Of a DNA stretch of 64,000 bases, positions 26,953 to 27,748 are shown one piece after another. The stretch lies in NCBI GenBank assembly GCA_964016885.1, contig CAXHJY010001110.1:1-64000 (forward strand), written 5' to 3'. The notes under the pieces are model-generated. The model was not told the DNA's origin. It searched no databases and saw nothing but the letters and a program-made list of their open reading frames with translations. Source of the DNA: Eledone cirrhosa (taxonomy: Eukaryota). Each line of letters begins with the position of its first letter. The stretch's first letter is position 1. A program made the translations under genes and the position numbers.

Positions 26953-27748
26953 ATGATGTTTCGCGGCTTTTTGATCGGCTTATTCATTTTTTCCATGGCA
27001 CGGAAATGGAGTATTTCCATTTCGAATCAAAACTTTTCACTAAAATCGGGCAATTGGACTGATCAAATTCACATTCATGCCAGTTTTTACAAATCCATAA
27101 TTAGAAATGTGGCGAAATCGAATGACCAGAAGGTATAAAAATATTAATTCAAATGTATTTACTTATCATACCAACAAAAATACTTAGATATTTTGTATAC
27201 CTGGGGCCCGTCAGGGCCAGGTAATGTTAATCGCCAACATTGTTATCTGTTGTCCTTTTGTGAAAGTATTGGTGGTTCATGTCGGCTCTAATGATCTGAA
27301 TCCTCGTCGCACCGTTGGCACTACAAAGCTGTGCAAAGTAATACAATAATTTTTGCCCAAGTATTTTTTATTAATCATTTATTTGTAAAATAAGGACAAA
27401 GTGCCCGTTCGAGGCACAAAACCGGAAAAACAGGGGAAGAGTCTCTTTGCAAGGCTACAGAAAATAGCGGAAAAGCACTACTGTACACCCATTTTCTACA
27501 GTGGTGTCATTCCACGTCCACAAAGTGTAATTGAAAATAAAAATGACTTGGGCAAGAGAAATTCTCGTTTGGAAAAGTTTAATTACTGCATGAAAGAAAT
27601 GATTCAAAAATTGAACTTGCCCAATCTTCACAACATTGAAAATTGGTCAAAATTTGACAAATCTGACTTCAAACCAGATATGATTCATTTGAACAATGTT
27701 GGAAATCTTAAATTGACACAAATTTTTGCCAATGTTTTTGCCACCTGA
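26953..27748 (+). CDS. Three-exon SGNH/GDSL-type hydrolase (transposon esterase-like); exons ..27132, 27188-27337, 27395-27748
   Basis: Phase-0 GT-AG introns 27133-27187 and 27338-27394 join KSIIRNV (block I) | FCIPGAR (II) .. VVHVGSND (III) | .. FYSGVIPR .. DMIHLN (V). Start codon is uncertain. Confidence 0.75.

Follow-up and report, generated by a model that had tools for sequence, protein, structure and literature searches.

SGNH hydrolase genes tied to Helitrons are known from teleost fish, where the texim/teximY genes contain introns, are multicopy and are expressed in testis; the account of these genes reports the Helitron link in fish only and does not decide between an enzyme that helps transposition and a host gene that was captured (PMC4021074). 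GDSL ORFs are likewise found in LINEs, in rotifer LTR elements and in Athena elements, and some of them have been described as lacking catalytic residues (PMC5408684). Among the matches listed, the literature on captured SGNH hydrolases together with Helitrons consists mostly of fish texim papers or reviews, as far as these entries show. Mobile elements as unrelated as CR1/L2/RTEX LINEs, rotifer LTR/Athena elements and fish Helitrons all carry SGNH esterases. Here we describe an SGNH gene carried by a repeat in a 64,000-nucleotide stretch of Eledone cirrhosa DNA (the whole stretch analysed, hereafter the window). SGNH cargo on Helitrons being already known from fish texim, the window gene is a variant of such cargo.

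Structure of the SGNH gene

The predicted gene, which escapes ORF callers, comprises the following features:

26953..27132, + strand, exon 1; 60 codons from the ATG, holds Tyr-Lys-Ser
27094-27096, + strand, codon of the exon 1 nucleophile Ser48
27133..27187, + strand, intron 1; 55 bp, GT-AG, phase 0, GC 0.18
27188..27337, + strand, exon 2; 50 codons, with Gly66 of block II and Asn95 of block III
27338..27394, + strand, intron 2; 57 bp, GT-AG, phase 0, GC 0.18, two in-frame TAA
27395..27748, + strand, exon 3; 117 codons plus TGA, block V Asp205-x-x-His208

Predicted splicing yields 227 open codons from the ATG at 26953 to the TGA at 27748. The two short introns proposed in the initial annotation were borne out in length, GT-AG borders and phase, as was the joining of three pieces into a single frame with four SGNH motifs (YKS at 46-48, PGAR at 65-68, GSND at 93-96 and DMIH at 205-208). 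The exons have a GC content of 0.36-0.45 versus 0.18 in both introns, and the 12 lowest-GC 55-bp segments of the gene begin at the intron starts or a few bases off. Among 13,654 open splice models sharing the same ATG (0-3 GT-AG introns of 40-300 bp, at least 120 aa), the 227-codon two-intron model is the longest, and its score of 61.3 bits against an HMM built from the four relatives only (see below) is the highest among two-intron models. Seven models score up to 1.2 bits above it; these keep both introns and excise C-terminal sequence alone. Exon 1 contributes 5.6 bits to the score and outscores 493 of 500 of its own shuffles; it was left out of the queries that found the homologues.

Contigs from public sequencing runs X1, X2 and X5 are continuous across the introns, DNA-like, and bear neither way on splicing. 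Among the joints listed (15 of 45) in the contigs of four of the 16 public runs considered, none skips either intron; the contigs of run X6 lack cover over exons 1-2. The gene model is well beyond chance, and we infer from sequence that the gene is spliced and expressed. That it is a spliced gene of the SGNH fold seems very probable.

Relatives of the predicted protein

In the predicted protein, Ser48 (block I), Gly66 (block II), Asn95 (block III) and Asp205 with His208 (block V) are conserved in order and spacing, the distance from the serine to the block II glycine being 18 here versus 17 in all four homologues. The window's own exons lie under the Pfam cut-offs: exon 3 alone matches Lipase_GDSL_3 with E 0.0051, under the curated threshold. 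Its ESM Atlas neighbours are clusters with GDSL families. A phmmer search of 1.84 billion representative proteins with exons 2-3 returned two relatives, P0002 (E 2.3e-7) and P0003 (E 7.6e-4), which themselves match Pfam Lipase_GDSL_2 (E 0.0009 and 0.002), and a profile search of 6111 candidates added P0004 and P0005. All four, recorded on single contigs of ~0.7-2.4 kb, are NADAR+SGNH fusions with the NADAR part in front (Pfam match in P0003-P0005, weak in P0002), and their identity to the window protein is about 28-33%. None of the protein collections searched contained a close relative of the window protein. In the openly accessible literature searched, we found no published account joining a NADAR domain and SGNH.

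A family profile of five rows (the four relatives and exons 2-3) matches the zebrafish ZfL2-1 LINE ORF1 esterase (PDB 4C1B) over blocks I-III with E 5.3e-7. The SGNH similarity initially claimed for the spliced peptide is supported by this match and by its 61 bits on the relatives' HMM. The structure model of exons 2-3, in which intron 2 was read through, was poor (pLDDT 57.7); with it, Foldseek gave no match at E 0.001, and VIA-align placed lumazine synthase in the top row (Z 6.3), with 19 of 50 rows being esterase, GDSL, PAF-AH or OatA by title (best Z 5.3, rmsd 3.4, 110 aligned). Exon 3 alone found no SGNH match among PDB sequences. None of 51 candidates among proteins longer than 205 aa proved related to exon 3, nor did any of 8000 proteins of 470-2000 aa scored with the family profile, both of which are weak evidence. 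Related loci were not found in metagenome contigs or prokaryote genomes, nor in viral contigs by three queries in close-relative searches, and no named texim sequence was among the relatives returned by the protein searches.

Altered block I

Ahead of the nucleophile Ser48, the Gly-Asp found in all four relatives (GDS) is replaced by Tyr-Lys. Homology starts at the serine itself: against the four relatives, BLOSUM sums lie between 7 and 15 from Ser48 onwards and between -3 and -14 for the preceding 8 residues. The exon 1 leader is without detectable homology. Its residues 6-16 are hydrophobic and signal-peptide-like, as judged by eye and hydropathy only, and the protein has three N-x-S/T sites, about the number that its composition gives. 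The idea that exon 1 retains part of a NADAR domain was rejected as unsupported (hhalign E 0.46, a score reached by 188-614 of 1000 shuffles), and the first 29.8 kb of the window gave no NADAR match by tblastn. A hidden third intron restoring GDS was likewise rejected, as the sole nearby upstream AG (27082-27083) still yields FYKS.

The initial annotation raised a pseudo-enzyme or damage as possible readings of block I and proposed looking for GDS or TDS in other copies. Damage is not supported for the window copy. The X1 contig over 27035-27274 (depth 582) is free of differences from the window, and the X5 contig over 27011-27419, with a different organism label and from a different study, has two (27390 and 27407); YKS is identical in both, hence in two organisms, and the copies are ~99% identical. 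An X2 contig over 27082-27460 has three differences, two of them listed. YKS and the splice sites, unchanged in the X1 and X5 contigs, therefore represent the state of the amplified form and not lesions of the window copy. Loss of the splice sites in other copies, named in the initial annotation as a refutation, was not seen; at ~99% identity, their retention says nothing on selection. Both translated exon differences between copies (V115I and Y139H) are residue changes. A variant joining 26905 to 26958, with three single-base gaps at 27032-27041, has a depth of 267 in X1 and occurs also in X2 and X5; it may represent a subfamily that has diverged, or else another gene with the same leader.

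As for activity, the residue preceding the SGNH nucleophile is described as normally Asp, Asn, Gln or Thr, which positions the serine (PMC10792757). The lysine before Ser48 removes this Asx motif, and catalysis is therefore likely impaired, a prediction from sequence towards which the balance leans only slightly. The protein may be a pseudo-enzyme that retains all five functional residues and has lost only the preceding Gly-Asp; the preservation of these residues at ~28% identity argues for catalytic constraint until recently, as opposed to a long-dead enzyme. The domain of residues 48-227 is basic (29 K+R versus 13 D+E, pI 9.9), and active-site mutants of the ZfL2-1 esterase are reported to still bind liposomes (PMC3905857). 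We predict an esterase of weakened or no activity, which by this analogy would use its basic surface to bind acidic lipids.

Anatomy of the element

The SGNH gene is carried by a young, multicopy, interspersed repeat of 3.3 kb. The initial placement of the gene inside a transposon holds as far as this repeat is concerned, its transposon class being what we infer. The features of the element are:

26269..26307, left terminus; boundary 26269/26270, hairpin 26273-26296, inverted repeat 26295-26307
26384, putative internal deletion junction; other copies diverge on both sides
27929..28288, - strand, second cargo ORF; encodes 119 aa and converges on the SGNH gene
28585..28775, ~190-bp inverted repeat, inner arm; contains about four tandem units of 34 bp and a one-mismatch 13-bp copy at 28593-28605
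29428..29613, outer arm of the ~190-bp inverted repeat; ends in the 13-bp reverse complement and TT, probable right end
6066..7268, - strand, second element copy, inverted and more deleted; without the SGNH gene

The left boundary is common to three insertions: the window copy, the inverted copy at 6066-7268 and X6 contig 29, which starts at 26269. The terminal hairpin lies 3-4 bp inside this end and is followed by the 13-bp subterminal inverted repeat; it has a 10-bp stem (z -4.85), none of 200 shuffles folds as well, and it is identical in copy 2. The reverse-complement partner of the 13-bp repeat occupies 29599-29611 and is followed by TT and then by satellite, which makes a right end at ~29613, abutting the satellite, probable. 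Allowing at most one mismatch, the 13-mer occurs six times in the window versus 0.26 expected, five of the six within the two element copies.

At 26384, X6 contig 29 leaves the window sequence, while two X1 contigs and X2 contig 12 join it there from a different sequence. Since other copies continue differently on both sides, the window copy has likely lost an internal stretch here; a 6-bp microhomology at the junction was also considered and is not supported by the loose-end letters. The copy at 6066-7268 matches 28419-29341 (96%) and 26269-26384 (115 of 116 bases); between these two parts lies a 160-bp module, and further derivatives join this module to 27566 or to 28419. Contig depth in X1, a rough guide to copy number only, is ~9 in the flank and at the junction and 560-630 over the gene (about 60-fold), and reaches about 1250 over 27566-28262, 17,668 in the bin 28516-28600 and 19,490 at the left terminus (at 26309). 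These depths suggest that copies with the gene number in the tens and that short derivatives are far more numerous.

The second cargo ORF (27929-28288) is BTB/BACK-like by language-model features only (ESM Atlas score 0.92, with agreement among 9 of the top 10 family matches); Pfam and PDB gave no support for BTB/BACK, and folding reached only pLDDT 40. Its X1 depth is about twice that of the SGNH gene, a 43-bp GT-AG intron-like stretch (28332-28290) lies just upstream of it, and a ~90-bp direct repeat (76%; 27788-27877 and 28477-28560) stands on both sides. Between the inverted-repeat arms, 28914-29276 (+ strand) is a GC-rich open frame of 120 codons without family match; in the 6141-6515 region of copy 2, a 13-bp insertion shifts the corresponding frame.

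As for the surroundings, a 49-bp satellite (~702 copies, 96% matches) fills 29616-64000, starting 2 bases past the probable right end. Its derivation from the element was considered and rejected, with only 8-bp matches between them. To the left of the element, 25622-26020 is a separate, very high-copy and diverged repeat (X1 depth up to 17,000). A weak hammerhead HH9 match (24396-24464, - strand; 22.6 bits, E 0.16) lies outside the element, in a small repeat with an internal palindrome and related stretches at 10905-11095 and 24413-24594. The window is rich in AT microsatellites and also holds a single 870-codon open frame (18959-21571, + strand) with PAN, long coiled-coil-like and C-type lectin domains, partially copied at 14101-14661, while 17660-19512 is duplicated at 12827-14654 (97%). 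An open 1028-codon endonuclease-reverse transcriptase ORF (2391-5477, - strand; fragment at 12120-12828), which we take to be an RTE-like LINE, has a PHD finger inserted after the RT domain.

Class of the carrier

That the SGNH gene is mobile-element cargo appears almost certain, and its carrier probably belongs to the Helitron2/Helentron class. The initial annotation had named Helentrons as carriers of SGNH esterases and had taken the introns to favour a DNA-based element. A Helentron-type carrier stands as the best reading, yet on account of the element ends, not the introns. Retention of introns is known in Penelope-like/Athena retroelements as well. These retroelements also carry GDSL ORFs (PMC5408684).

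Three traits of Helitron2/Helentron elements are present: short asymmetric terminal inverted repeats (8-18 bp in the class), here the 13-bp pair 26295-26307/29599-29611 with the right end probable; a hairpin between subterminal repeat and terminus (26273-26296); and abundant non-autonomous deletion derivatives sharing ends, as seen in the depth profile, the loose ends and the 6066-7268 copy. Read on the minus strand, the 13-bp repeat lies ~26 bp from the end, just upstream of the hairpin, and the same layout, with the repeat near the end and just upstream of a hairpin, is described for Helitron2 (PMC3627910). An inner inverted repeat and tandem units are described for DINE-1/HINE, and in the mite HINEs of the same source the hairpin lies 8-35 bp from the end versus 3-4 bp here (PMC4067079).

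Helitron2/Helentron elements insert between T and T without target duplication and have a 5' T. In both window copies the base before the left end is T, and on the + strand the right end closes in TT, but with the polarity reversed; the T-rich sides lie on the hairpin-first strand, opposite to canonical Helentrons. In the scheme consulted, this polarity fits only 'HLE2-reverse', which that source records so far from Fusarium and Phytophthora (PMC11417382). HELIANO counts only 5 HLE2 in Octopus sinensis, and a term search of its supplement found SGNH, GDSL, NADAR and BTB absent from the 20 recurrent Helitron cargo domains. The neighbouring Rep-Hel gene that the initial annotation proposed to look for is not present: neither Rep-Hel nor any transposase was found in the window. 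The terminus pattern was not found in metagenome contigs.

The 3' CTRR after the hairpin of canonical Helitron1 is absent, the hairpin end reading GAT(A) on the minus strand, and two introns and the absence of a downstream ORF2 depart from the CR1/L2/RTEX layout of an intronless ORF1 upstream of an endonuclease-reverse transcriptase. Penelope-like/Athena elements (Terminons) have as hallmarks hammerhead-bearing pseudo-LTRs and a PLE reverse transcriptase. In 26269-29613, no Rfam match, hammerhead included, appeared at E up to 1, and the window copy of the element has neither reverse transcriptase nor poly-A tail.

Proposed origin and alternative explanations

We propose, with moderate confidence in the reading as a whole, a three-exon SGNH gene on a non-autonomous Helitron2/Helentron derivative whose product would be a weak esterase or lipid binder. 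A longer rolling-circle element would have captured an SGNH gene, and through gene fusion the leader up to Lys47 would have replaced the ancestral NADAR-beta1-Gly-Asp segment; with the new leader fused just ahead of Ser48, YKS would differ from GDS at a stroke. The transposase would have been lost with the deletion at 26384, and a Rep-Hel protein from another locus would copy the deletion derivatives in trans. If expressed, the product would have weak esterase activity and serve mainly as a basic protein that binds lipids, with membrane binding by analogy with the ZfL2-1 esterase.

The alternatives, not all of which exclude one another, concern either the protein or its carrier. On the same carrier, the protein might be an esterase that is active despite its unusual block I and is perhaps secreted via its hydrophobic N-terminus, which we consider unlikely: S48, G66, N95, D205 and H208 are all retained, the frame is open in the amplified form, and residues 6-16 with three N-x-S/T sites would suit secretion, yet the lysine before the serine removes the motif by which the nucleophile is described as being positioned (PMC10792757), homology is absent before Ser48, the sequons are as many as composition predicts and the signal peptide is putative, by hydropathy. 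We give no more credit to a decaying passenger, in which rearrangement removed the ancestral 5' part (NADAR and the block I GD) from a master element that was later amplified with no selection acting on the gene. The abrupt start of homology at Ser48, the many deletion junctions of the family, the 26905/26958 variant that departs near 27032-27041 at a depth of 267, and the fact that both translated exon differences change the residue would all fit; against it, a 60-codon exon begins at an ATG of good context and runs exactly in frame into a GT donor, both introns are intact, 227 codons are free of stops, and two substitutions are too few to measure selection.

A different carrier, either a Penelope-like/Athena fragment, a fold-back/TIR element or a Polinton- or virus-like unit comprising several small genes, is possible but doubtful. 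Athena GDSL ORFs, some described without catalytic residues (PMC5408684), the LINE ORF1 esterase as closest solved relative, the ~190-bp inverted repeats and the two small convergent genes favour it; the element, however, is free of Rfam matches up to E 1, has neither reverse transcriptase nor poly-A tail, and has asymmetric ends, while three queries in close-relative searches of viral contigs found no relatives. An ordinary host gene inside a segmental duplication would account for the introns, and an unrelated lectin gene has a 1.85-kb duplication in the same window; the rise in depth from ~9 to thousands at a sharp boundary, common to three insertions with different flanks, makes this explanation extremely improbable. 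To return to the proposed rolling-circle derivative, a stronger form of it is conceivable, in which an invertebrate Helitron2-type family independently captured a gene of the NADAR-SGNH lineage, the leader swap cost the GD, and the gene was kept alongside the BTB-like gene and is expressed as a pseudo-enzyme, either lipid-binding or secreted, that aids the spread of the element. We hold this form to be decidedly improbable. If true, SGNH cargo would be a recurring rolling-circle function and not a hitch-hiking fish fertility gene, and an animal element would show 'HLE2-reverse' polarity.

Comparison with known systems

The case as it stands is suggestive only. An apparently independent second DNA-element case outside fish, in which the amplified form keeps the five catalytic residues and has lost the GD, would let catalysis and membrane binding be weighed against each other as the selected trait. 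The nearest sequences found, P0002-P0005, are like the window gene in block II-III spacing, and in block V where present; in these four, block I reads GDS and a NADAR part lies upstream, whereas the window gene has neither. Fish texim, as described, shares with it an intron-containing multicopy SGNH gene tied to a rolling-circle element without reverse transcriptase. Its exons, however, number up to 15, its blocks are intact and a Helitron coding region lies next to it; the window gene has three exons and has lost the GD, and no transposase is present in the window copy.

In turn, the ZfL2-1 ORF1p esterase (4C1B; PMC3905857), the best solved match, has blocks I-III and a basic surface like the window protein. 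According to its description it is located within ORF1 ahead of a reverse transcriptase, keeps GDS and has shown activity, while the window gene stands alone and is spliced by prediction. As for the carrier, HINE/DINE-1 and Helitron2/HLE2 elements (PMC4067079, PMC3627910, PMC11417382, PMC5148889) are described with asymmetric inverted repeats and a terminal hairpin, an inner inverted repeat, tandem units and deletion derivatives with common ends, all as in the window element with its 13-bp repeats. Set against these descriptions, the window element has its T-rich sides on the hairpin-first strand and its hairpin nearer the end, and carries whole genes, with no partner transposase in the window. 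SGNH folds without normal catalysis are described for the OSK domain of Oskar (PMC10792757) and for Athena-L GDSL derivatives (PMC5408684); Oskar OSK and the inactive Athena-L GDSL proteins, in the accounts consulted, lack catalytic residues, whereas the window protein retains all five.
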